Part shown: positions 2,853 through 55,194 of the stretch, in pieces
Position numbering within the stretch: the first letter of the stretch is position 1
How the letters are laid out: every line of letters starts with the position of its first letter
NCBI GenBank assembly: GCA_963728945.1
Contig: CAVSMA010000002.1
Location: 674,723 to 738,722, forward strand
DNA from: an uncultured Actinomycetota bacterium
GTDB lineage: Bacteria; Actinomycetota; Actinomycetes; Mycobacteriales; CADCTP01
Direction: 5' to 3'
DNA length: 64,000 nt
Position numbers and translations under genes: made by a program
The notes under the pieces: generated by a model
Seen by the model: only the letters and a program-made list of their open reading frames with translations
The model's database searches: none
Told to the model about the DNA's origin: nothing

Positions 2853-3881
2853 GTGTTCTGCTCGTCCCGCTGCCGGCTCGGCGACCGGCGGCTGCGGGTC
2901 GAGCCCGACCCGGACCGGCGCCGGCGGGAGGTCGCCGCGTTCGCGACCGCGGTGCGAGCGGCGATCGCCGGGCACGGGTCGGTACTGCGCGACCTGGCCG
3001 AGGAGCTGGTCTGCGCCTACCCGTCGCTGGCCTCCGGCGTGGCCACCCTGTCGGCGTGGCAGTCCGGCAGCAGCTCACCGCCGCGGACGGTCGTCGGCCG
3101 GGACCGGGTGCTCGCCCTGGAGCGGGTGCTCGGCCTGCCGCTGGGTGAGCTGGTCCTGCGCATGCCGGGCGGACCGGTGGTGCCGGCGCCGCGCCCGCCG
3201 ACCCCGGCCCAGCAGGACGGTCCGGCCGCCCGGCGGGCCCGGCTCGCCCACCTCGTCGGCGGGTTCGGCGGCTCCCGGCAGGTGCTGGTGATCTCGCTGG
3301 CGAAGGAGGTGCTGCTCGACCCGGCCGGCCGGCCGCGGTGCGCGCGGGTCAGCGCCCGGGTCCGCGCCCTGCAGGACGGTGTCGACCGGCTCTGGTACGT
3401 CGACGGCGACGACCCGCGGCTGCGCCCGCTGGTGACCGCGACCAGCGGCTGCCGCCCCGGGCGGCGGGTGCCCGAGCGTGGTCGGGCCGGCCCCGGCCTG
3501 GTCGCCACCGAGCTCGTGCTCGACCGGTCGCTCGGCCCGGGGGAGCGGTACGGGGTCTCGTTCCTCGTCTCGTACGAGCCGCGGGCGGGCACGGCGCCGG
3601 CGAGGCCGGCCGAGCCGGTGCTCCGCCAGCTGGTGACCCGCCCGCTGGAGAGCCTCGACCTCGGGTTGGGCGTCGACCCGGCCGCACCACCGGGCGCGGT
3701 GCTCGCCTGCCGGTGGCGGGCCCGGGACGGCGCCGAGGTGTCCCGCCGGGAGCTGACCCTGCCCGGCTGCCGGTCGTACCAGGTGGTGGTGGCCGACCCG
3801 GTGCCCGGCAGCTACGGCTTGCGGTGGGCGGCGGTCACCCCGGCACGGCTTCCGACCCGGTCGGGCACCAGTGCGGCCTGA
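2853..3881 (+). CDS. hypothetical protein, possible zinc-ribbon DNA-binding regulator; this is the ORF body only, and the probable true start is GTG 2753 in another frame
   Basis: 342-aa ORF with good third-position GC, beginning (V)FCSSRCR. The upstream frame carries SD GGGAGGG, GTG 2753 and RRCPICGSP. No family recognised by eye. Confidence 0.55.
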   Translation: MFCSSRCRLGDRRLRVEPDPDRRRREVAAFATAVRAAIAGHGSVLRDLAEELVCAYPSLASGVATLSAWQSGSSSPPRTVVGRDRVLALERVLGLPLGELVLRMPGGPVVPAPRPPTPAQQDGPAARRARLAHLVGGFGGSRQVLVISLAKEVLLDPAGRPRCARVSARVRALQDGVDRLWYVDGDDPRLRPLVTATSGCRPGRRVPERGRAGPGLVATELVLDRSLGPGERYGVSFLVSYEPRAGTAPARPAEPVLRQLVTRPLESLDLGLGVDPAAPPGAVLACRWRARDGAEVSRRELTLPGCRSYQVVVADPVPGSYGLRWAAVTPARLPTRSGTSAA

Positions 3882-3988
3882 CGCTCGTTCGTCCAGCAGG
3901 AACGCAGCGCGCACACAGCCGACGCACAGCGTTCGCCCAGTGCCGCCACAGCGGCGGGAGGGAGGCTCAGGCGCGACGACGGACCTGA

Positions 3989-9711: not shown

Positions 9712-10343
9712 CCACCACCCCTGAGCCCGCGGAGCGCGGCCGCGCGACCCCGGCCGGACGAGGTGCGGGACGGGAGCTGGTCTCGGTGGCGGCGGTGTGC
9801 GCGGTCGGCGGCGGGATGGTGCTGTTCGCGGTCGGGCGGCCGTGGGTGGAGCTCGTCGCGCACCGTGCGTCGCCGCTGCCGGACGTCACGCTCGGGCTGT
9901 CCGGGCGCACCCTCGAGCCGCTCGTCGCCGGGCTCGGCATCGTCGGGCTGGCCGGCGTGGTCGGGCTGCTGGCGACCCGCCGCTGGGGCCGGCTGGTCGT
10001 CGCCGCGATCGTCGCGCTGTCCGGGCTCGGCGTGCTGGTCACCGCGCTCACCCGGCTCACCGCCCCCGGCGCCGCCGAGGCCCGTGACCTGCTGGCGGGC
10101 GCGGGCCGGTCCGCCGGCGCCGCCGCGGTCACCGCGACCGCGCACCCCGGCTGGCCGCTGCTCGCCGCGGCCGGCGGGCTGCTGCTCGCCCTCGGCGGCC
10201 TGGCCGCGCTCGCGCGGTCCCGGCGCTGGCCGACCATGTCGGCCCGGTACGAGACGCCGGCCGCCCGCACCGGCCGCCTGCGCACCGACGCCGCCGTCTG
10301 GGACGCGCTCGACCGCGGCGACGACCCGACCGCGGGCCCCTGA
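9708..10343 (+). CDS. Trp-biosynthesis-associated membrane protein (Rv1610-type)
   Basis: ATG 9708 overlaps the trpE stop (ATGA). 211 aa with about 4 hydrophobic helices. It sits in the conserved position directly after trpE. Confidence 0.75.
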   Translation: MTTTPEPAERGRATPAGRGAGRELVSVAAVCAVGGGMVLFAVGRPWVELVAHRASPLPDVTLGLSGRTLEPLVAGLGIVGLAGVVGLLATRRWGRLVVAAIVALSGLGVLVTALTRLTAPGAAEARDLLAGAGRSAGAAAVTATAHPGWPLLAAAGGLLLALGGLAALARSRRWPTMSARYETPAARTGRLRTDAAVWDALDRGDDPTAGP

Positions 10344-17012: not shown

Positions 17013-18515
17013 GTGCTGCTTGCGTCGTTCCCGAGCCCCAGCCGCGCCGTCTGGGATCTCGGTCCGATCCCGATCCGGGCGTACGCGTTGTGCATCATCG
17101 CGGGGATCATCGCTGCGATCTGGATCGCCGAGCGGCGCTGGGTGGCGCGCGGCGGGAAGCGCGGCACGGTCTCGGACATCGCGGTCTGGGCCGTCATCTT
17201 CGGGCTGGTCGGCGGCCGGCTCTACCACGTGATCAGCGACAACGAGCTCTACTTCCGGGCGGGGCGCGACCCGTGGCGGGCGTTCTACGTCTGGGAGGGC
17301 GGGCTCGGCGTCTGGGGCGCTATCGCGCTCGGCGGGGTCGGCGCCTGGATCGGCTGCCGGCGGCGCGGGATCAAGCTGCCGCCGTTCGCGGACGCGGCGG
17401 CGCCCGGGATCGCGGTCGCGCAGGGCATCGGGCGGTTGGGCAACTACTTCAACCAGGAGCTGTTCGGCCGGCCGACCGACCTGCCCTGGGGGGTGCGGAT
17501 CGACCCGGACCGGCCGAGCACAGTGCCGGGCGCGACGGCGTACCACCCCACGTTCCTGTACGAGATGCTGTGGGACTTGGGGCTCGCGGGCGTTCTGATC
17601 TGGGTCGACCGGCGGTACAAGATGGGCCGCGGCCGGGTCTTCGCCCTGTACGTGATGGGCTACACCGCCGGGCGGGTGTGGATCGAGATGCTGCGCATCG
17701 ACACCGCCAACCACGTGCTCGGGCTGCGGCTGAACGTGTGGACCTCGATCCTGGTGTTCGCCGGCGGGCTGGTCTACTTCCTGTTGCACCCGGGGCCGCG
17801 GGAGACCGTCGTCGAGCCGGACGCCGTCCCCGCCACCGGCGGCCCGCCGGCGCGACCGGCACCCCCACCGACGAGACCGACGAGAAGTCGCCCGCTGCCG
17901 TCGACGGCGAGACCGAGGCGGACGGCGAGGACGACGACGCGAAGACACCGGCAGGCGACGCCGGTGACGCGACCGGCCCGGCGGCCGAGGTTGCTGCCAC
18001 CACCCCCGCCGACCCCGACCCGGCTGGGACAGCCGTCCCTGCCGAGAACGCTGTCCCGACCGAGGACCCGCTGCGGGCCGAGCATCCCGTCGGGATCGAG
18101 GATCCCGTCCGGGCCGAGGACCGCCGTCGCGGACCGGGGATCCCGTCCGGGCCGAGGACGGCGTCGCGGCCGGGGATCCCGTCCGGGCCGAGGACGGCGT
18201 CGCGGCCGGGGATCCCGTCCGGGCCGAGGACCGCGTCGCGACCGGGGATCCCGTCCGGGCCGAGGACCCGGTCCCGGCCGAGGACCCCCGGGACGAGGAC
18301 CCGGTCCCGGCCGAGGACCCCCGGGCCGAGGACGCGCTCCGGGCCGAGGACCCGGTCCGGGCCGAGGGCGGCGTCCGGAGCGAGGACGGCGTCGCGACCG
18401 GCGGTGGCGTCGCGGCGGAGGACGGCGAGTCGGCGGCGGAGGACGGCGTTCCGGCCGGGCGGCGCAAGCGCTGACCCACATCCGCACCCGCAGTAGTTGC
18501 ACGCGCATGTTCTAG
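17013..18515 (+). CDS. lgt: prolipoprotein diacylglyceryl transferase with a long low-complexity C-terminal extension; the end and frame of the tail are uncertain
   Basis: GTG 17013. The first ~265 aa are canonical Lgt ([39 protein letters not shown]). The computed ORF runs to 18515, but codon usage in the tail favours other frames (see findings). Confidence 0.85.
18101..18440 (+). repeat. coding tandem repeat of 36-bp units that decay into 12-18-bp GCCGAGGAC-type units
   Basis: Unit is GATCCCGTCCGGGCCGAGGACGGCGTCGCGGCCGGG. Units start at 18101 (a 38-nt variant), 18139, 18175, 18211 and 18247 (truncated). In frame 1 they read [12 protein letters not shown]. Confidence 0.85.
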
Positions 18516-31913: not shown

Positions 31914-33314
31914 TCACGCGGCTGGGGCCAGGCGCTGCAGCAGGGTCCAGAGCGCCTCGACGTGCCGGCGCTCGGTGAACGTCCCCCCGATCGACACCCG
32001 CAGCACGTACCGGCCGTGCGCCCGGGTGTGCGACAGGTAGGCCTCGCCCGACTCGTTGACCGCCCGCAGCAGCGCCTCCGAGGCCTCGTCACCGGCGACC
32101 AGGCGTAGGCAGACCAGGCCGAGCGGGTGCGGCGCCACCACCTCGAACCGCGGGTCGGCGCGGGCCCAGGACGCCAGCTCCTGGGCGAGCGCGACGCAGG
32201 TGCGGATGTGCTCGCGCAGCCCCTGCGCGCCGTACCAGCGCAGCACCGCCCACAGCTTGAGCGCCCGGAACCGGCGGCCGAGCGGGATCTGCCAGTCCCG
32301 GTAGTCGATGACCGCGCCGGATTCGGTCGGCGCGTTGCGGAGGAACTCCGGCAGCACCGAGAGCGCGCCGACCAGCGCGTCCCGGTCGGCGACCCAGAAC
32401 GCGTCGCAGTCGAAGTTGGTCAGCAGCCACTTGTGCGGGTTGGTGGCGTACGAGTCGGCGAGCTCGAGGCCGTCGTTCAGCCAGCGGAGCTCGGGGCAGA
32501 CCGCGGCCACCCCTGCGTATGCGGCGTCGACGTGCAGCCAGATTCCCTCGGCCCGGCAGAGTTCGCCGAGCGCGCGGACCGGGTCGATCGCGGTGGTCGA
32601 GGTGGTGCCGACGGTGGCGAGCACGAACAGCGGCGTGACGCCGGCGGCCCGGTCGGCGGCGACCGCGGCCCGCAGCGAGCCGGCGGTCACCGACAACGAG
32701 GACGGGTCGACGTCGAGCACCCGGATCGCGGCGTCGCCGAGCCCGGCGATGCGGACCGCCTTCTCGCCGGCGGAGTGCGACTCGGGGGAGAGGTAGACCG
32801 CGTACCGGTCGCGGATCCCATCGGTACGCACCGTGCCGCCGGAGACCTTGTGCAGCGCGGCGACCAGGGCGCAGAGCACGGAGCTGGACGCGGTGTCCTG
32901 GATGACGCCGGAGCCGAGGAACCGCTCCGGCAGGCCGAGCAGCTTTGCCAGCCAGTCCATCACGACGGTCTCGACCTCGGTCACCGCCGGCGAGGTCGCC
33001 CAGAGCATCCCCTGCACGGCCAGTCCCGAGCTCAGCAGATCCCCGAGCACCGCCGGCCCGGACGCGTTGGCCGGGAAGTACGCGTAGAACGAGGGATGCT
33101 GCCAGTGCGTGATCCCCGGCATGACGACCCGCTCCATGTCGGCCAGGACGGCGGAGAAGGGTTCGCCCTGCTCGGGCGCTGTCGACGGCAGCAGGGCGGC
33201 GACGTCCCCGGGCTTGACGCGCGCGCCGACCGGACGCGACTCGATGTTCTCCCAGTAGTCGGCGATCCAGTCCACGACCTGCCGCCCGTACTCCCGGAAC
33301 TCGTCCGGGGTCAT
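31914..33314 (-). CDS. group II PLP-dependent (aromatic-L-amino-acid-type) decarboxylase
   Basis: ATG 33314 inside the 723-aa ORF gives 466 aa. Motifs HWQHPSFYAYFP, DAAYAG, and the PLP-lysine motif NPHKWL. The stop is 9 nt from the gltB stop (convergent). Confidence 0.85.
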   Translation of the reverse strand: MTPDEFREYGRQVVDWIADYWENIESRPVGARVKPGDVAALLPSTAPEQGEPFSAVLADMERVVMPGITHWQHPSFYAYFPANASGPAVLGDLLSSGLAVQGMLWATSPAVTEVETVVMDWLAKLLGLPERFLGSGVIQDTASSSVLCALVAALHKVSGGTVRTDGIRDRYAVYLSPESHSAGEKAVRIAGLGDAAIRVLDVDPSSLSVTAGSLRAAVAADRAAGVTPLFVLATVGTTSTTAIDPVRALGELCRAEGIWLHVDAAYAGVAAVCPELRWLNDGLELADSYATNPHKWLLTNFDCDAFWVADRDALVGALSVLPEFLRNAPTESGAVIDYRDWQIPLGRRFRALKLWAVLRWYGAQGLREHIRTCVALAQELASWARADPRFEVVAPHPLGLVCLRLVAGDEASEALLRAVNESGEAYLSHTRAHGRYVLRVSIGGTFTERRHVEALWTLLQRLAPAA

Positions 33315-33398
33315 GTGCGTCACGCACCCATCCTGCCAAGAACGTTCCACCGACTCGGCTCCTCGTGGCACGCGCGGAGCCCCGCCGTCCCACTCGCC

Positions 33399-33831
33399 CC
33401 GCACGGGCTCCCCGACCGGCACCGCACGCACGGCGACGAGGTCCGGGGGCTCCGGCCCCGACCCGCGCCGCACGCACGGCGACGAGGTCCGGGCGGCTCG
33501 GGCCGGCACCGCCCGGGCGGCGACGAGGTCCAGGGCCTCCGGCCCCGACCGGCGCCGCACGGACGGTGACGAGGTCCGGGGGCTCCGGCCCCGACCCGCG
33601 CCGCACGTACGGCGACGAGCTTCGGAGGGGCTCGGGCCGGCACCGCACGCATGGTGACGAGCTTCGGGGGCTCGGTCCGGCACCGCACGCATGGTGACGA
33701 GGTTCGGGGGGGCCTCGGCCCCGGGGCCGGCGCCGCACGTATGGTGACGAGGTCCGGGGGCCCCCGACCGGCACCGCACGCACGGCGACGTACCGGAACG
33801 CGGGGGTGCCGGGGGGCTCGGCCCCCCGGCC
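33399..33831. repeat. non-coding tandem array: about 9 full and 1 partial copies of a 40-50-bp GC-rich hairpin-forming unit
   Basis: Units start at 33422, 33468, 33509, 33555, 33601, 33643, 33683, 33733 and 33774. Consensus is CCGCACGCAYGGYGACGAGGTCCGGGGGCTCCGGCCCCGACCSGCR. Unit lengths are 46, 41, 46, 46, 42, 40, 50 and 41 nt, so they are not multiples of 3. Confidence 0.9.
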
Positions 33832-33885
33832 AGCATGCACCCCGACCCGGCGAGCGCGTTCCGCGAGCACGCCTCGCCGGAGGGG

Positions 33886-33969
33886 TGCCGGGAGCGGGAC
33901 TCGAACCCGCAAGCCCTTTCGGGCAGATGCTTTTGAGGCACCCGTGTATGCCGATTCCACCATCCCGGC
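33886..33969 (-). tRNA. tRNA-Leu (anticodon CAA), class II with a long variable arm; CCA is not encoded
   Basis: Manual fold: acceptor GCCGGGA/UCCCGGC, anticodon stem GGUGC/GCAUC, loop CU-CAA-AA, variable arm UGCCCGAAAGGGCUU, T-arm GCGGG-UUCGAGU-CCCGC, discriminator A. Confidence 0.95.
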
Positions 33970-34026
33970 TCGGCGCGCACCCGGAGTCTAGCCAGGTACG
34001 CTGCGGTCTCCGGCTCGCGACGACGC

Positions 34027-34659
34027 GTGTCCGCACCACGCCTTGGAGTGCCCGTGTCCGATGCGCCACCCCGCCGCGTCCTCATCGCCGAGGACGAGGC
34101 GCTGATCCGCCTCGACCTGAAGGAGATGCTCGAGGAGGAGGGCTATGCCGTGGTCGGCGAGGCGGGCGACGGTGAGCAGGCCATTGCGCTGGCCGACTCG
34201 CTGCGCCCGGACCTGGTCATCCTCGACGTCAAGATGCCGAAGGTGGACGGGATCGCGGCGGCCGAACGGATCGCCGGTGACCGGATCGCCCCGGTGGTGA
34301 TCCTCACCGCGTTCGGCCAGCGTGATCTGGTCGAACGTGCCCGCGAGGCCGGCGCGATGGCCTACCTGGTCAAGCCGTTCCAGAAGAAGGACCTGGTGCC
34401 GACGATCGAGATGGCGACGTCCCGGTTCGCCGAGATCGTCGCGCTCGAGCAGGAGGTCGGTGGGCTGCAGGAGCGGTTGGAGGCACGCAAGACGGTCGAA
34501 CGGGCCAAGGGCGTGCTGATGACCGAGCACGGCATGACCGAGCCGGAGGCGTTCCGCTGGATCCAGCGGACGGCGATGGACCGGCGCACGACGATGCGGG
34601 CGGTGGCGGAGGCGGTGCTCGCGGCCGGCTTCGACCTGACCGCCGACTCGGGGCGCTGA
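34027..34659 (+). CDS. pdtaR: ANTAR-domain response regulator (PdtaR-like)
   Basis: Receiver motifs VLIAEDEALIRLDL, DLVILDVKMPKVDG, YLVKPF. ANTAR domain (LEARKTVERAKGVLM...EAFRWIQRTAMDRR). GTG 34054, preceded by GGAG, is a likely alternative start. Confidence 0.88.
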   Translation: MSAPRLGVPVSDAPPRRVLIAEDEALIRLDLKEMLEEEGYAVVGEAGDGEQAIALADSLRPDLVILDVKMPKVDGIAAAERIAGDRIAPVVILTAFGQRDLVERAREAGAMAYLVKPFQKKDLVPTIEMATSRFAEIVALEQEVGGLQERLEARKTVERAKGVLMTEHGMTEPEAFRWIQRTAMDRRTTMRAVAEAVLAAGFDLTADSGR

Positions 34660-49313: not shown

Positions 49314-50561
49314 CTAGCCCGAGCCGAGCGGGGCCGGGTCGAGCGAGCCGGTCGGGATCCGGTCCCGCAGCACCAGCAGCGTGGCCGCCACCGCGAGCGC
49401 GCCGGTGCAGACCAGGCTGACCGCAAGGATCGCGGCGGGGGAGTCGTGCGGCCCGACCGCGATGACCAGCGCCTCGACCGCGACCACCACCCAGAGCAGC
49501 CGGCCCGGCCGCGGGTCGCCGGCCGCGACGGCGGCGAGCAGAGCCAGCTGCACCAGCGCCCAGAGCGTGCCGAGGATCGCGAACGGCACCGCGAGGTTCA
49601 CCGCCTCGGCGTAGCCGGGGTCGTCGCCGGCGATCACCCGGACCACCGGCCCGGCCGCGACCGCGGCGACCAGGATCCCGGCCGCGCCCACCCCGCCGGC
49701 CGCGGCGGCCGAGCGCAGCAGCAGCCCGCGGCCGGAACCGTCGCGGGCCAGCCGCGGGAACACCAGCGCCGGCACGAACTGGGCGCCCCACAGGCAGGCC
49801 TTGCCGAACAGCGCGGCCAGAGCGTACGCGCCCGACTCCTCGCGGGACAGGAAGTGCCGGGCCAGCAGCAGGTCCACGTTGGACAGCACGATCACGCCGG
49901 CGATCGCCGAGCAGGCCCTGGCCAGGTCGGCGAGCAGGTCCCGGGTCCGGCCGGGCACGCTCCAGCTGTCCGGGCCGCACATCCACCACAACCCGGCCGC
50001 GGCGGCGAAGGTGCCGACCGCGAGCGCCGCCATCGCGCCGGCCACCGACAGCGCGAGCAGCGCGGTGACCACGCCGGCGGCGAACCGGGCCAGCGCGGTC
50101 AGCAGCTGCCCGGCGGCGAACGCGGTGTAGCGCTCGTGCCCGAGCAGGCCACCGAGCAACGCGCCCTGCACCGAGTACGGCAGCAGCATCACGCCGAGCC
50201 AGAGCGCCGGCCACGGGCTGCCGAGGTGGAAGAACGCGTCCGCGACCGGGGCCAGCACGATCACCAGCCCGCCGACCACGGCGCCGACCGTGATCGACAG
50301 CCGCAGCCCGGCCCGCTCGTTGGCGCCCGCGGGCAGCTCGGCCGCCGCGGTACGCCGGGCCAGCACGTAGGTCAGCGCGCCGGCCGGGATGCCGCCGATC
50401 AGGCCCACCCCGAGCAGCGCGCCGAGCGCGCCGTACTCCGCCGGCCCGAACGAGCGGGTCAGCAGCACGGTCAGGCCGTAGCCGAGGGCGTTCGACAGCA
50501 CCGACGCGACCCCCAGCAACACCCCCGCCCGGGCCAGCGACGTGCCACCGCGCTGCGCCAT
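49314..50561 (-). CDS. polysaccharide-biosynthesis/MOP-superfamily flippase (second copy)
   Basis: 415 aa, polytopic. N-terminus ARAGVLLGVASVLSNALGYGLTVLLTRSFGPAEYG is typical of Wzx-like exporters. Divergent from the AftD-like gene. Confidence 0.7.
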   Translation of the reverse strand: MAQRGGTSLARAGVLLGVASVLSNALGYGLTVLLTRSFGPAEYGALGALLGVGLIGGIPAGALTYVLARRTAAAELPAGANERAGLRLSITVGAVVGGLVIVLAPVADAFFHLGSPWPALWLGVMLLPYSVQGALLGGLLGHERYTAFAAGQLLTALARFAAGVVTALLALSVAGAMAALAVGTFAAAAGLWWMCGPDSWSVPGRTRDLLADLARACSAIAGVIVLSNVDLLLARHFLSREESGAYALAALFGKACLWGAQFVPALVFPRLARDGSGRGLLLRSAAAAGGVGAAGILVAAVAAGPVVRVIAGDDPGYAEAVNLAVPFAILGTLWALVQLALLAAVAAGDPRPGRLLWVVVAVEALVIAVGPHDSPAAILAVSLVCTGALAVAATLLVLRDRIPTGSLDPAPLGSG

Positions 50562-50594
50562 CGCACCTCCGCGCGCAGCATATCGGGGTACCTA

Positions 50595-50606
50595 CCTACC
50601 GGTAGG
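50595..50606. promoter_or_regulatory. perfect 12-bp palindrome in a 55-bp divergent promoter gap
   Basis: CCTACCGGTAGG sits within GGTACCTACCTACCGGTAGGGT, between the flippase start (50561, minus) and the likely AftD-like start (50617, plus). Confidence 0.3.
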
Positions 50607-50616
50607 GTCTGGGCGC

Positions 50617-53600
50617 GTGGAGGACGTGCGGCCGGTCTCGTGGTGGACGCCCACCCGGACCGCGGCCGTCGTCCTCTGGGTGGTGCTGGCCGAGGTGGTG
50701 CTGCTCAGCTCGTTCGGCTCGTTCGTGGTCGACACCAAGCCGGAGCTCTACCTGGCCCCGTGGCGCAGCGCCGCCGCATACCTGTCCGCCTGGCAGGCGA
50801 ATCCGCAGCTGGGCTTCCCGTCGTTCAACGTCGGCCTGGCGCCGGTCGCGGCCACGGTCGGGCTGATCCAGGCGGTCGGGATCCCGCCCGAGCTGTCGGT
50901 GCGGGTGCTGCGGCTGCTGCTGTTCGCGGTCGGCTCGCTCGGCGCCGCCCGGCTGTACCGGTCGCTGCGGCCGGGCTCGGACCCGCTCGGGCCGCTGGTC
51001 GCCGGCACCGTGTTCGTCGCCAACCCGTACGTGGTCGTGGCCGGGACGACGCAGGCGATCCTGCTGCCGTGGGCGCTGCTGCCCTGGCAGCTGCTCTGCC
51101 TCGTGCATGCGCTGCGGGTGCCGGCCGGCGCCGGCCGCTGGGCCAGGTGGCGGTGGCCGGCCGGGTTCGCGCTCGCGTTCGCCGCGACGTCCGGGATGAA
51201 CGCGGGCGTGGTGCCGCTGTTCCAGCTCGTCGCGGTTCCGGTCGTGGTCGCGGTGGTCCGGCCGGAGTCGTGGCGGCGCGCGCTGGCGGTGGTCGGCCGG
51301 TGCGCGGTGCTGGTGGTCGCCGTCTCGCTGTACTGGATCGTCCCGTCGGTGCTGGCCGTCGGCGCCGGCGCGACCGTGGTCGACAACTCGGAGACGCCAC
51401 AGGGCATCTCCGGCCCGTCGTCGGCCGCCGAGGTGCTGCGCGGGCTGGGCCTGTGGCCGCTGTACGGCTCGGGCGGGCGCGGCGTGTGGCTGCCGGAGTT
51501 CGCCGGCTACCTCACCTCGCCGGTCGTCGTGCTCGCCTCGTTCGCGCTGCCGGTGCTGGCCGTCGCCGGTGCGCTGCTGGTCCGCGGACCGCTGCGCCGG
51601 CTCGGGGTCGGCCTGCTGCTGGTGGCGGTGCCGATCATGGTCGGGCTGTTCCCGGTGGCGCATCCGGCGCCGTTCGGCCGCGCGCTGGACTGGGCGTTCG
51701 TGCACCTGCCGTTCGCGGCGGCGTTCCGGACCACGAACAAGGTCGGCGCGGTGCTGGTGCTCGGCGTGACGTTGCTGGTGACCGGCGGCGTGGTCGCGGC
51801 CTGGCGGCGCTGGCCCGGCCGCGGCCCGCGGGCAGCGGTGGCGGCGGCCGTCGCGCTGGTGCTGGCCGGCTCGACCCTGCCGGCCTGGACCGGCCACCTG
51901 TACGTCAGCTCGGTCGACCTGCCGCCGTACTGGAAGCAGGCAGCGGCCGAGCTCGACGCCGGGCCGCCGGACCAGCGGGTCTGGTTGGTGCCCGGCGAGG
52001 TGCAGGCGTCGTACCGGTGGAGCGAGGACCGCCCGGACGACCTGTCCACCTCGGTGCTCGACCGCCCGTCGGTGGTGCGCACGGTGATCCCGGTGACCTC
52101 GGCGCCGGCGGCGAACCTGCTCGCCGAGCTGGACGGCGCGCTGCAGGAGCAGCGGCTGCCGCCCGGCGCGCTGTCCACCGCGGCCCGCTACCTCGGGGTC
52201 GGCGACCTGCTGCTGCGCAACGACGTCGTCTGGGAGCTGACCGGCGGGGCGCGGCCGGCGCAGGTGCGGGCACAGCTGGACGCCGACCCCGGGCTGCGGC
52301 AGGACGGGGACTTCGGCGGGGCGGGCCAGAACACGATCTCGCCGACGGTGCCGCCCGAGTCGGCCGGCGAGGCGGCACTGCCACCCCTGCAGCGGTATGC
52401 CGTGGACGGCGCCCGCGCGGTCACCCGCACCGACGCCGCCGCGGCCACCGTGCTGGTCGACGGGGACGGCGGGGCGCTGGCACCGATGACCGCGGCCGGG
52501 CTGCTGCCGGGCTCGCCGACCTTCCGCTACCTCGCCGACCTGTCGCCGGCCGAGCTCGCCCGGCTGCTGCCGGAGACCGCGCGGATCGTGCTGACCGACA
52601 CCAACCGGCGGCGGACCACGGTGGCCGGCCGGCTGGCCAACGGCACCGGCCCGCTGCTGTCGGCGGCGGCCGACCCGGGCGGGACGCGCGCGCTCGGCCC
52701 GGTCGGCGACCAGACCACGCTGACCGTGACCGGCGGCGCGGCGACCGCGACCGAGTCGGGCTCGGCGTTCGGGCCGGTCGCGGCGGCCAGCCCGGAGAAC
52801 GCGGCCGACGGCGATCCCCGCACCGCCTGGCAGTTCGGCGACTTCGGCCGGGCGGTCGGGCAGTCGGTCACGCTGCGGTTCGCGGCCCGGGCGGTGCCCC
52901 GGGTCTCGGTCGCGGTCCGGCCCGGGGCGGTGGCGATCAGTCGTGTCCGGATCGAGGTCGGCGGGCAGCACGCGGACCTCGGGGTCGGGCCGTCCGGGGT
53001 GGCGACATATCGGCCGGCGGCTCCGGTGCGGGCCGACTCCGTGCGGGTGACGGTGCTGGCGACCAGCGGCGAGGGCTTCAGCCGGGTCGGCATCGACGAG
53101 GTCACCGTCCCCGGCGTGCGGCTGACCAGGGTGGCCACCCTTCCGTCCACTGTGGACAGTCTGGTCGCCGGGCTGCCGGCCGCGGCGCGGCAGCGGCTGG
53201 CCGGCACACCGGTGGACGTGCTGCTCAGCCGGGCCCGCGGCGCCACGTCCGCGGACGACGAGGAGACCGGGCTGGCCCGGGACTTCACCGTCCCGGTGCC
53301 GCGCACGGCGGTCGCCAGCGCGCTGATCCGGCCGTCCGCCCCGCTGCCCGAGGCCGACCTCGACCGGCTCGCCGGCTACACCGGGCCGGTGCGGGCGACC
53401 TCAACGTCGCGGGCGTTCGGGCTGCCGACCGTGCGGGCGTCGCAGGCGCTGGACGGGCGGCCCGACACGGCCTGGCTGCCGGCGGTGCCGGTGGTCGGGC
53501 AGTCGCTGCGGATCAGCGCGCCACCGCGCCGGGTCGACCACGTGGATCTCACCCAGGTCGGTCGCCGGCTCACCGACTGGGCAACCCGGGTGCGGGTCAC

Positions 53601-55194
53601 GCTCGACGGCACGGTCGTCGCCACGGCGCCGGCCGCCCGCGGCACGACCCGGATCTCGTTCCCGGCCCGGACCGCGTCGCGGCTGGAGCTGACGATCCTG
53701 GCCACCCACAGCGGCCGGCCGGACGCGTCGGTGCGGATCTCCGAGGTCGACTTCGGTGGCGCGCGGATCCGCGGCACCGGAGCGCGGCCGTGCGTGCCGG
53801 TGTCCACTGTGGACGGGCACGCGCTGCTGATGCGGCCGGTCGCCCCGATCACCACCGACGACGCCGTGCCGTGGCAGGGGTGCGGGTCGCTGTTCCTCGG
53901 GCCGGGTCCGCACCGGGTGCGGCCGGTCGCCGGCTGGCAGCCGGACCAGCTGGCGTTGCGGGACACGCTCGGGCTGGGGGAGCGGCGACCGCCGCCGGGA
54001 CCGCGGTACGCGGTGGCGCCAGGGCGGGCCGGGTCGGCAACGGTACGGGTGTCGTCGGCCAACGGCGCCTGGTATCTGATCAGCGGGCAGGCGTACGACC
54101 CGCGGTGGAGGGCGAGCGTCGACGGTCACGATCTCGGGCCACCGATCCTTGTCGACGGGTACGCGGCCGGGTGGCGCGTCGACCTGCCCGGCACGACGCA
54201 CGTCGCGACGATCCGCTACGGACCGCAGCGCGTCACCGACGCCGGGTTCGCCCTGTCCGGCGCCACCGTCCTCGGCTGCCTGGCCCTGCTCGTCCTGCGC
54301 GCCCCGCCCCGGCGGCGGTTCGGCGCGCTGGGCCGGCGGCCGGTCGGCGCCGTCGCGACCGGCCCGGCACCCGACCTGCCGACCTGGACCGGCGGCCACT
54401 GGACCGCGCCGCCCGGGCCGGACGCCGACTGGTCGCCCGCGCCGCACCGACCGCCGCCCGGCGCCGGGCCGACCGGCTCCGCCACAGCCGAGTCGACGCC
54501 CCAAACGGACCGGTCGCCCCGGACGCCCGCAGGCCCCGAACCGGTCGCGGGGACCAGCGGGGTCGTGCCGACCGGAACGCCGGGATCGGCCGCCGCGACC
54601 GGCGCCGGATCGGTGGGCGGCGCCGGATCGGCGGGCGACGACGCACCGGCAGCGAGCGACGACGCACCGGCGGTGGGCGGCGCGGCGGTGGGCGGCGCGG
54701 CGGTGGGCGGCGCGGCGGTGGGCGGCGCGGCGGTGGGCGGCGCGGCGGTGGGCGGCGCGGCGGTGGGCGGCGCGGCGGTGGGCGGCGCGGCGGTGGGCGG
54801 CGCGGCGGTGGGCGGCGCGGGACCGGTGGGCGGCCGTGTGATGGGGGCCGGGGCGAGCGGGTGGCCGCCAGGCCGCGGCTCCGCGCGGCGGGTGGCCGGC
54901 TGGGTCGCGGTGGCCGCGCTGGCGTGGGTGCTGGGCGGGGCGGGGCTCGGGCTGGCGGCGGTGCTGCTGGCCGGGTGGCATCTGCTGCGGCCGCCGCGGC
55001 CGCGGACCCTGATCGTGGCGGCGGCGGGGCTGCTGGCCGCGGTGCCGGTGGTGTGGCTGGCGCTGCGGCCGGACATCGGCGGGGGGCTGTCCGCGCACGT
55101 GGTCGCGGACGACCTCTGGCCCCACCGGTTGGCCGGGCTGGCCCTGCTGCTGCTCGCCGTCGGCGTCACCCGGGCTGAGCGGGGGCGCCGGTGA
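50617..55194 (+). CDS. AftD-like (DUF3367) GT-C glycosyltransferase with discoidin/F5-8-type-C-like carbohydrate-binding modules and C-terminal TM helices
   Basis: The ORF opens at 50542. GTG 50617 avoids overlap with the divergent gene. There is an N-terminal polytopic domain with DTKPELYLAP. Two modules carry DGDPRTAWQ and DGRPDTAWL motifs. (AAVGG)n and 3 terminal TM helices follow. About 1525 aa. Confidence 0.8.
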   Translation: MEDVRPVSWWTPTRTAAVVLWVVLAEVVLLSSFGSFVVDTKPELYLAPWRSAAAYLSAWQANPQLGFPSFNVGLAPVAATVGLIQAVGIPPELSVRVLRLLLFAVGSLGAARLYRSLRPGSDPLGPLVAGTVFVANPYVVVAGTTQAILLPWALLPWQLLCLVHALRVPAGAGRWARWRWPAGFALAFAATSGMNAGVVPLFQLVAVPVVVAVVRPESWRRALAVVGRCAVLVVAVSLYWIVPSVLAVGAGATVVDNSETPQGISGPSSAAEVLRGLGLWPLYGSGGRGVWLPEFAGYLTSPVVVLASFALPVLAVAGALLVRGPLRRLGVGLLLVAVPIMVGLFPVAHPAPFGRALDWAFVHLPFAAAFRTTNKVGAVLVLGVTLLVTGGVVAAWRRWPGRGPRAAVAAAVALVLAGSTLPAWTGHLYVSSVDLPPYWKQAAAELDAGPPDQRVWLVPGEVQASYRWSEDRPDDLSTSVLDRPSVVRTVIPVTSAPAANLLAELDGALQEQRLPPGALSTAARYLGVGDLLLRNDVVWELTGGARPAQVRAQLDADPGLRQDGDFGGAGQNTISPTVPPESAGEAALPPLQRYAVDGARAVTRTDAAAATVLVDGDGGALAPMTAAGLLPGSPTFRYLADLSPAELARLLPETARIVLTDTNRRRTTVAGRLANGTGPLLSAAADPGGTRALGPVGDQTTLTVTGGAATATESGSAFGPVAAASPENAADGDPRTAWQFGDFGRAVGQSVTLRFAARAVPRVSVAVRPGAVAISRVRIEVGGQHADLGVGPSGVATYRPAAPVRADSVRVTVLATSGEGFSRVGIDEVTVPGVRLTRVATLPSTVDSLVAGLPAAARQRLAGTPVDVLLSRARGATSADDEETGLARDFTVPVPRTAVASALIRPSAPLPEADLDRLAGYTGPVRATSTSRAFGLPTVRASQALDGRPDTAWLPAVPVVGQSLRISAPPRRVDHVDLTQVGRRLTDWATRVRVTLDGTVVATAPAARGTTRISFPARTASRLELTILATHSGRPDASVRISEVDFGGARIRGTGARPCVPVSTVDGHALLMRPVAPITTDDAVPWQGCGSLFLGPGPHRVRPVAGWQPDQLALRDTLGLGERRPPPGPRYAVAPGRAGSATVRVSSANGAWYLISGQAYDPRWRASVDGHDLGPPILVDGYAAGWRVDLPGTTHVATIRYGPQRVTDAGFALSGATVLGCLALLVLRAPPRRRFGALGRRPVGAVATGPAPDLPTWTGGHWTAPPGPDADWSPAPHRPPPGAGPTGSATAESTPQTDRSPRTPAGPEPVAGTSGVVPTGTPGSAAATGAGSVGGAGSAGDDAPAASDDAPAVGGAAVGGAAVGGAAVGGAAVGGAAVGGAAVGGAAVGGAAVGGAAVGGAGPVGGRVMGAGASGWPPGRGSARRVAGWVAVAALAWVLGGAGLGLAAVLLAGWHLLRPPRPRTLIVAAAGLLAAVPVVWLALRPDIGGGLSAHVVADDLWPHRLAGLALLLLAVGVTRAERGRR
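54667..54834 (+). repeat. perfect in-frame 15-bp tandem repeat (GCGGCGGTGGGCGGC = AAVGG): 9 perfect copies plus degenerate flanking copies
   Basis: Perfect units start at 54682 and recur every 15 nt to 54802. The flanking copies are CCGGCGGTGGGCGGC (54667) and GCGGGACCGGTGGGCGGC (54817). Confidence 0.95.

Follow-up and report, generated by a model that had tools for sequence, protein, structure and literature searches.

The closest described systems for the locus reported here are the tandem repeats of Mycobacterium tuberculosis. MIRUs are intergenic repeats of 46–101 bp which occur in tandem and with variable copy number, and 41 loci are known in H37Rv (PMC3914561). The units of the ETRs of M. 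tuberculosis measure 53–79 bp (PMC3914561). Bacterial minisatellites or VNTRs are recognized by head-to-tail units of roughly 10–100 bp and by a number of units that differs between related genomes at the same locus. In 1997 Supply et al. reportedly placed the MIRUs between the genes of operons, with small ORFs overlapping the neighbouring genes. The present study describes a tandem array at positions 33399–33831, minus strand, of the window (the whole stretch of 64,000 nucleotides that was analysed), between a tRNA-Leu(CAA) gene and a PLP-dependent decarboxylase gene. It is made up of nine full units and one truncated unit, placed head-to-tail, with unit sizes of 40–58 bp (40–50 bp for the short units and 58 bp for the tRNA-proximal one). 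These sizes fall within the minisatellite range and reach only the lower edge of the MIRU range, and the number of units at the site differs between related genomes (nine, six and four) with shared flanks. The features of the locus are given below.

34054..34659, plus strand: response regulator with an ANTAR domain, PdtaR-like (PF00072, PF03861)
33884..33969, minus strand: tRNA-Leu(CAA), 86 nt, with a long variable arm (ARAGORN; Rfam tRNA model, 52.7 bits)
33835..33883, minus strand: first trailer hairpin, CCGGCGAG...CTCGCCGG (fold -24.9 kcal/mol)
33774..33831, minus strand: long unit of 58 nt, the 'seed' unit (alignment of five loci)
33422..33773, minus strand: short units, eight in number (positions from Tandem Repeats Finder, 20-mer and profile HMM)
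33399..33421, minus strand: truncated last unit, CCGGTCGGGGAGCCC then GTGCGG (read from the sequence)
33336..33398, minus strand: unique spacer from the array to the predicted promoter (read from the sequence)
33330..33335, minus strand: predicted -10 hexamer CAGGAT, 6 nt upstream of the GTG (from a nine-locus comparison)
31914..33323, minus strand: pyridoxal-dependent decarboxylase of the aromatic-L-amino-acid type, 469 aa from GTG (PF00282, E = 9e-105)

Tandem Repeats Finder reported a period of 46 with 8.6 copies, 75% matches and 12% indels at 33410–33790, and higher-order periods of 87 and 133 were seen in the array. The 20-mer CCGCACGCAYGGYGACGAGG, with up to three mismatches, gave nine matches in the window as compared to 0.38 expected from shuffles. 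The matches start at 33422, 33468, 33509, 33555, 33601, 33643, 33683, 33733 and 33774, at successive spacings of 46, 41, 46, 46, 42, 40, 50 and 41. A profile HMM built from 19 units recovered nine units at 33420–33827, all on the minus strand, with E values from 1e-10 to 3e-5. The array was recovered by all three approaches, and the unit starts and lengths given in a preliminary description of this DNA were reproduced exactly by the 20-mer. Its figure of about ten units is borne out by the nine full units and the truncated one, but the tRNA-proximal unit (33774–33831) is longer than was described, at 58 nt. The array begins 53 nt from the tRNA, and its G+C content is 77–84% as compared to about 70% in the flanks. 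It had also been thought to fill the 5' region of the decarboxylase gene; instead, it stops 76 nt short of the GTG at 33323, and the intervening sequence is unique.

Counted from the tRNA side, the short units are 41, 50, 40, 42, 46, 46, 41 and 46 nt long. In the reading direction of the tRNA and the decarboxylase, each consists of a GC-rich segment of variable length, beginning with CCGG, and then the 23-nt linker ACCTCGTCRCCRTRCGTGCGGYG. The truncated unit forms the decarboxylase-side edge of the array, and an identical type of edge is present in the related locus L001. The unique spacer beyond it holds a 7-bp inverted repeat (GGAGCCC ... GGGCTCC) and is conserved among the window and the related loci L001 and L002. 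Units were numbered from the tRNA side and labelled W for the window, A for L001 and B for L002. Pairwise identity among the window units ranges from 65 to 93%, and each unit can be distinguished from its neighbours. The units at 33555 and 33422 (W5 and W8) are 93% identical along their entire length, and they appear to be private, recent duplicates within the array of the window.

All six reading frames are open through the array. A coding repeat was rejected because the unit lengths are not divisible by three and because no gene is called in the spacer on nine related contigs; together with a difference of 137 nt between alleles, this upholds the earlier view that the array is non-coding. 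A CRISPR array, which had been dismissed before, was rejected here as well, since the variable halves of 14–27 nt are variants of one another and of one hairpin, and there are no unique spacers. No cas gene was found among the decarboxylase, the ANTAR regulator and the binding protein (Pfam), and no candidate for one was seen among the ORFs of 30.5–36.5 kb.

The unit was not found elsewhere in the 64-kb window, either by the 20-mer or by the profile HMM, which gave nothing outside the array at E <1. A two-unit pattern was searched in one genome each of 185,579 species. It matched 78 loci in unrelated GC-rich bacteria, each as a single match and none as an array, and we judge these to be fortuitous and probably located within coding DNA. 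A single-unit pattern of 29–32 nt gave two matches in 241 million metagenome records, both in the tRNA–decarboxylase spacer of the same locus. The spacer showed no similarity to phage and plasmid collections by blastn. Within the 64-kb window and the collections searched, the unit is confined to the tRNA-Leu/decarboxylase locus. MIRU-type dispersal over many loci was thus not seen in the window, the 185,579 species genomes or the 241 million metagenome records. The operon setting with overlapping ORFs is not present either, as the upstream neighbour is a tRNA gene and no gene is called in the spacer on the nine related contigs. As dispersal, which defines a MIRU- or REP-type interspersed family, was tested and not found in the window and these collections, the array is not a member of such a family. 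The MIRU/VNTR likeness drawn in the preliminary description is therefore retained for the VNTR behaviour, with nine, six and four units at the same site, but not for MIRU as an interspersed family, the unit being restricted to one locus. In the same way, the question of dispersal and copy-number variation raised there has a divided answer: there is no dispersal in the window or the collections, but copy number does vary among relatives.

The tRNA-Leu(CAA) gene is transcribed in the direction of the array and its CCA is not encoded. The first trailer hairpin lies directly 3' of the tRNA and outside the repeat (minus strand, z = -0.9; plus strand, z = -2.2); a hairpin occupies this position in five of five relatives, with differing sequences. 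Just past the tRNA comes a conserved element of about 58 nt, in which a 10-bp GC hairpin is followed by CGCGTTCCGG and then by ACGTCGCC. This element is kept in all five relatives with the 86-nt tRNA-Leu, as seen in an alignment of five loci. In the long unit of the window the 10-bp GC hairpin lies at 33808–33830 and is followed by CACCCCCGCGTTCCGGTAC and then GTCGCCGTGCGTGCGG; the unit folds at -37.5 kcal/mol (z = -1.7). Eight of nine pairs of the hairpin are kept in all five sequences, one of them via a compensatory GC-to-AU change, and the outermost pair is gapped out in two sequences and a GU wobble in one. The first units of L001 and L002 each match the long unit at about 90% identity.

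The tRNA-proximal window unit and three of the four L002 units have 15 extra nt in the linker, CCCGCGTTCCGGNAC, and in the unit alignment a short unit equals a long unit minus these 15 nt. As the short units lack them and the long units contain them, the short unit is a deletion derivative of the long one. The trailer element of about 58 nt is the ancestral seed of the array, and it may itself be a functional tRNA-trailer signal. In two more distant relatives, L003 and L004, the element is bracketed by short CCGG..GTCGCC direct repeats about 55 nt apart, which would be a classical substrate for the first slipped-strand duplication.

The source is an actinobacterium of high G+C content (about 70%), and the closest proteins were found in soil metagenomes and in MAGs carrying the label Mycobacteriales. 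Apart from L091 and L092, a pair at 78% identity with different genes upstream of the decarboxylase, all fetched relatives share the order ABC transporter, ANTAR regulator, tRNA, decarboxylase and gltB. Three lineages whose decarboxylases are 97–98% identical carry nine units (the window), six units (the L001 type) and four units (L002), the last along with about 300 bp of other sequence in the spacer. The edge units of these alleles are orthologous, as W0, A0 and B0 are about 90% identical, W1 and B1 90%, and W7 (the 33468 unit) and A5 (the last unit of L001) 95%, and the interiors differ. Orthologous edges, differing interiors and recent duplicates together are what minisatellite turnover, through unequal exchange or slippage, typically produces.

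Related arrays with other unit sizes (62, 68 and 52/76 nt) are present at the same site. L004, which lies in assembly GCA_035995165.1, has 68-nt tandem units built from the same modules as the window units, and L003 has 52/76-nt tandem units which are not recognized by the unit profile HMM; these more distant array-bearing relatives show 85–88% protein identity. Five lineages have tandem repeats in this spacer, and at least two of the unit sequences are unrelated to each other. Among the earlier suggestions a recombination hotspot comes closest to the evidence, given that repeats of different unit sizes occupy the same spacer in five lineages. With such recurrence, it could be that a long structured spacer is favoured.

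No array is present in three relatives at 83–85% identity. In L088 the tRNA ends 26 nt before the decarboxylase ATG and there is no spacer, in L089 the two are separated by 330 nt without any repeat, and in L090 a 433-aa gene occupies the spacer. That this ORF is a mis-called array was considered and rejected, as there is no tandem repeat inside and the ORF has the look of a genuine gene. Since these three lack it, the array is dispensable for both the tRNA gene and the decarboxylase gene. The six-unit allele of the L001 type shows not a single base difference among six independent JGI and ENA assemblies, so arrays at this site are neither assembly artefacts nor hypermutable over short periods. 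Among other assemblies in the 241 million metagenome records, the nine-unit allele was not found a second time. The region between the tRNA and gltB also varies in gene content among relatives, with MarR and cupin genes in L004 and an extra gene in L090.

The length of 469 aa is shared by decarboxylase homologues at 97–98% identity. A search for the exact decarboxylase product from an ATG start gave no match because the relatives start at the GTG three codons upstream. In nine of nine loci compared, a [T/C]ANNNT hexamer is found 6–7 nt before an in-frame GTG (TATTTT, TAGCTT, TAGCGT twice, TACCGT, CACCTT and CAGGAT three times), and this GTG lies 2–9 codons before a conserved His-Met-Thr-Pro. 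In M. tuberculosis, where leaderless mRNAs are common, the centre of a TANNNT -10 motif is found 7–12 bp before the start site (PMC3898074). We infer from this that the decarboxylase mRNA is leaderless, with the -10 at 33335–33330. The array would then precede the promoter, at -76 to about -510 from the predicted transcription start, and would not be part of a 5' UTR. A role as an RNA-stability or processing element of the decarboxylase mRNA, which had been listed among the possibilities, is hard to reconcile with an array upstream of the -10 of an apparently leaderless gene. A consensus scan of the spacer region found no sigma-70-type promoter, and transcription of the array could be possible only as read-through from the tRNA.

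The ANTAR regulator gene is divergent to the tRNA and the decarboxylase and is followed by a branched-chain amino-acid (liv-type) ABC transporter; gltB is convergent with the decarboxylase. Ramesh et al. are said to have described in 2012 that ANTAR targets consist of two adjacent hairpins having hexanucleotide loops with A at position 1 and G at position 4. The array was rejected as a target RNA of this regulator, since no hexaloop with A1/G4 was seen on reading the units, and since no gene of the regulator's transcription unit lies downstream of the array.

The two halves of the unit have diverged to different extents. When 14 short units from three alleles were compared with their consensus, 41% of alignment cells differed in the hairpin half, with many indels. 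In the linker 10.6% of cells differed (25 transitions, 8 transversions and 1 indel), which makes it about four times better conserved than the rest of the unit. As the linker changes are mostly transitions, we read them as drift and not as constraint. It could be, all the same, that conservation of the linker reflects selection, for example on a protein-binding site, beyond a higher indel rate of G/C runs. The linker was compared informally and by eye with the site consensuses of GlnR, PhoP (PHO-box) and CRP, and no fit was seen.

A stem-loop had been described in each unit. GC stems of at least 8 bp are indeed present in six of the nine units, but the units at 33468, 33601 and 33643 have stems of only about 5 bp, and the 5' stem arm (CCGGCCCGAGCC...) is lost in three of nine. 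The loops of the main GC hairpins are 3–5 nt long (CGA, GGA, CCGGA), and loops of 7–9 nt are found in three units with decayed stems. Several units form stems of large absolute stability, -22 to -37 kcal/mol. Folding on both strands, as suggested in the preliminary description, brought out no unit that is more stable than its own dinucleotide shuffles (minus strand, z between -0.2 and +1.3; plus strand, z between -1.4 and +1.1). Compared with shuffles, the whole 570-nt spacer had z = -1.7 for the minus strand and z = 0.0 for the plus strand, which we read as no excess. The tRNA was the sole match to Rfam 15, both at the gathering score in the whole window and with E up to 10 at 33000–34300. 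At about 80% G+C stems arise from composition alone, and so the hairpins are no evidence of function. Within the unit, conservation does not lie with the hairpin.

Taken together, the array is best explained as an ordinary single-locus minisatellite of the VNTR/ETR type, a product of slippage or unequal recombination and most probably without dedicated function, and we put the probability of this reading at roughly 0.6. Slipped-strand mispairing or unequal recombination would first have made a tandem copy of the element of about 58 nt in the tRNA trailer. One of the copies would then have lost 15 nt to give a derivative of 41–46 nt, and this derivative would have been amplified further in blocks of one to three units. 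Amplification in such blocks would explain the 87- and 133-bp periods. The array would thus be a by-product of a mutational process and not an evolved device. Its sole likely effect would be a passive one, as a GC-rich spacer of about 430 bp between the tRNA gene and the decarboxylase promoter.

It could also be supposed that the GC hairpins of the trailer stop or slow RNA polymerase, or block 3' exonucleases, and in this way insulate the decarboxylase promoter from a strong tRNA promoter. The array lies directly behind the tRNA and in the same orientation, the tRNA-proximal hairpin is conserved with one compensatory change, the unit stems at -22 to -37 kcal/mol are strong in absolute terms, and the spacer as a whole is slightly more stable on the minus strand. 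However, a terminator scan of 32800–34400 on both strands found neither terminator-like sites nor a U-tract behind any of the hairpins, and in vitro the RNA polymerase of mycobacteria does not terminate at hairpins lacking a U-tract, even with NusA and NusG (PMC3993855). Moreover, one unit in three has lost the stem, variation is greatest in the hairpin half, the stability is not above that of shuffled sequence, and the array is absent in L088 and L089. A read-through barrier is thus unlikely, and the stacked terminators proposed before find no place here, for want of U-tracts and with the hairpins being the least conserved part. The repeats could instead be iteron- or operator-like protein-binding sites, or a 'tuning knob' set by copy number, upstream of the decarboxylase promoter, with the linker as the recognized part. 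That the linker is the best conserved part of the unit, that the array is at -76 to about -510 from the predicted transcription start and that copy number varies among close lineages would all fit with this. Against it, the linkers are spaced 40–50 bp apart and are not in helical phase, and on reading the linker no dyad symmetry or internal repeat was seen. No regulator gene specifically tied to the array is present within the window, the array is missing in relatives that keep the same gene and promoter architecture, and an allele identical in six assemblies shows no instability of the phase-variation kind. We consider such a role quite unlikely. There is only a small chance that the trailer element is functional, as a U-tract-independent stop or processing site or a linker-centred protein site, and that its amplification was selected as an adjustable insulator or expression dial for a leaderless decarboxylase promoter; this would explain why five lineages have independently kept tandem repeats in the spacer.

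tRNA genes are common integration sites. The gene content between the tRNA and gltB varies among the relatives, and the array could on these grounds be viewed as the scar of repeated integration and excision of mobile elements at the tRNA gene, with stacked att sites. This proposal of the preliminary description is largely refuted and now hardly credible, as the units are unlike the tRNA 3' end, a second copy of its 23-nt 3' end (up to three mismatches) is not present in the window, no integrase gene is found beside the tRNA, the spacer is without phage or plasmid similarity, and the units are contiguous with no island DNA between them. Expansion or collapse of the repeat by the assembler has in its favour that the nine-unit allele was seen in no other assembly and that many related metagenome contigs are short, perhaps because of breaks at the repeat. 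It is nevertheless very improbable, since all units are distinguishable and since six independent assemblies, drawn from two data sources, agree exactly on the related six-unit array. The preferred reading, a minisatellite generated by slippage or unequal recombination, is left with two main puzzles, the stronger conservation of the linker and the recurrence of tandem repeats at this spacer in several lineages. These two observations leave a small chance for a tunable insulator or an array of binding sites.

The significance of the locus is modest. It documents how, in an uncultured soil actinobacterium, a conserved hairpin element of a tRNA trailer can seed a minisatellite with quick turnover between close lineages. 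The locus could be used as a strain-resolving marker in metagenomes, and it is a likely breakpoint for assemblies. It is also a trap for annotation, as six frames are open and a conserved linker with a variable segment can mimic a CRISPR array. It should be noted as a cautionary case as well, since at about 80% G+C 'hairpins' are expected from composition alone.

Comparison with known systems places the array nearest to the VNTR loci. Pneumococcal boxB units of the BOX elements are about 45 bp. Like these and the REP/BIME elements of enterobacteria, the array is GC-rich, partly palindromic and intergenic, and such elements can be tandem. However, the REP/BIME and boxB families are dispersed in tens to hundreds of copies and the array occupies a single site. 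Within BIMEs the REPs occur in alternating orientation, and they rely on RAYT transposases, whereas the nine units here are all on one strand; neither high-copy dispersal nor alternating orientation, by which REP/BIME are recognized, was found in the searches above. With intrinsic terminators, including the proposed U-tract-less 'I-shaped' ones of actinobacteria, the locus has in common a GC hairpin after a stable-RNA gene. It differs in that no U-tract follows the hairpins of the array and in that the repeated copies have decaying stems; the conserved tRNA-proximal hairpin may be of the U-tract-less 'I-shaped' kind. MIRUs share with the array a similar size range, the tandem arrangement, the intergenic position and the variable copy number. 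They constitute one scattered family, whereas the present unit is found at one locus behind a tRNA gene and its length is not a multiple of three. The VNTR/ETR loci of M. tuberculosis are likewise head-to-tail, intergenic and with units of tens of bp in a GC-rich actinobacterium, and they too have a locus-specific unit, alleles differing by whole units and no need of a dedicated function. The units of the array are shorter (40–58 bp) and more diverged. The likeness is one of type and not of an established sequence relationship, and the polymorphism is seen here between lineages about 2–3% apart in flanking protein and not between strains. What further sets this locus apart from the VNTR/ETR loci is that the origin of its unit can be traced to an element of the tRNA trailer.

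The decarboxylase downstream of the array appears to be leaderless, judging from the sequence around its start. The element concerned is as follows.

33321-33335, minus strand: hexamer and GTG start of the decarboxylase, found at matching positions in relatives L001-L004 and L088-L091

At 9/9 loci compared, an in-frame GTG was observed with a [T/C]ANNNT hexamer 6-7 nt to its 5' side, that is, in the window, in L001-L004, which have tandem repeats in the spacer between tRNA-Leu(CAA) and the decarboxylase, in the array-less L088-L090 and in L091, one of a pair with 78% identity. The ATG at 33314, which is the choice of a simple ORF reading, is probably not the true start codon of the decarboxylase.

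The genes adjoining the decarboxylase differ between relatives (L004:5396-6278, L090:1189-2490, L091:1980-2330). L004 has MarR and cupin genes 3' of the decarboxylase, and in L004 and L088-L092 a pyruvate kinase gene separates the decarboxylase from gltB. Upstream of the decarboxylase, L090 carries an uncharacterised 433-aa gene and L091 an ArsR/MarR-type regulator. In the window, the interval from the tRNA to gltB contains none of these genes (MarR, cupin, pyruvate kinase, 433-aa or ArsR/MarR-type regulator).

Other repeats occur in the spacer of relatives. In L002, a close relative with four units, the spacer (3700-3900) holds about 300 bp extra as compared to the window, including a separate 28-nt tandem repeat, GGGGGCAGCGCCCCATGCCGGGGGTGCA, in about 2.5 copies; this extra DNA adds to the signs that insertions and duplications build up in the spacer. 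The spacer of L003 (3764-3939), a relative with 88% protein identity, contains units of 52/76 nt (CCGGGCCACACCGGCCCGGCCGG...) in tandem, which the profile of the window's unit did not recognise.

Elsewhere in the window, two tandem repeats are found inside coding sequence.

18033-18457: 18-bp repeat, about 20 copies, 70-88% matches, in the 3' part of ORF 17013-18515
54668-54834: 15-bp repeat, 10.9 copies, nearly perfect (98% matches), inside ORF 50542-55194

The 18-bp repeat encodes a low-complexity, Gly/Arg/Pro-rich C-terminal tail on a product whose N-terminus, on our reading, resembles prolipoprotein diacylglyceryl transferase (Lgt). The 15-bp repeat encodes (AVGGA)x11 close to the C-terminus of a 1550-aa product, apparently a membrane protein, and the high identity of its copies suggests that it expanded recently and may be a coding VNTR.

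A 94-nt tRNA-Pro(GGG) was called by ARAGORN at 9950-10043 of the window; the Rfam tRNA model stays below its gathering score there, and the call is probably a false positive.

The tRNA upstream of the decarboxylase is not of one kind among the relatives. The window and L001-L004 have a long-arm tRNA-Leu(CAA) of 86 nt, and in the array-less L088, L089 and L090 the equivalent position in the gene order is occupied by a class-I tRNA of 74-75 nt with anticodon CAA.

L088:1901-1975, class-I tRNA(CAA)
L089:2095-2170, class-I tRNA(CAA)
L090:1071-1145, class-I tRNA(CAA)

In these three tRNAs the D stem has 3 bp, the variable loop has 5 nt, position 73 is A, and the anticodon stem has an A.C mismatch at its base; the Rfam tRNA model gives those of L088 and L089 a score of 50.9 bits. 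A leucine anticodon on a short-arm tRNA is unusual.
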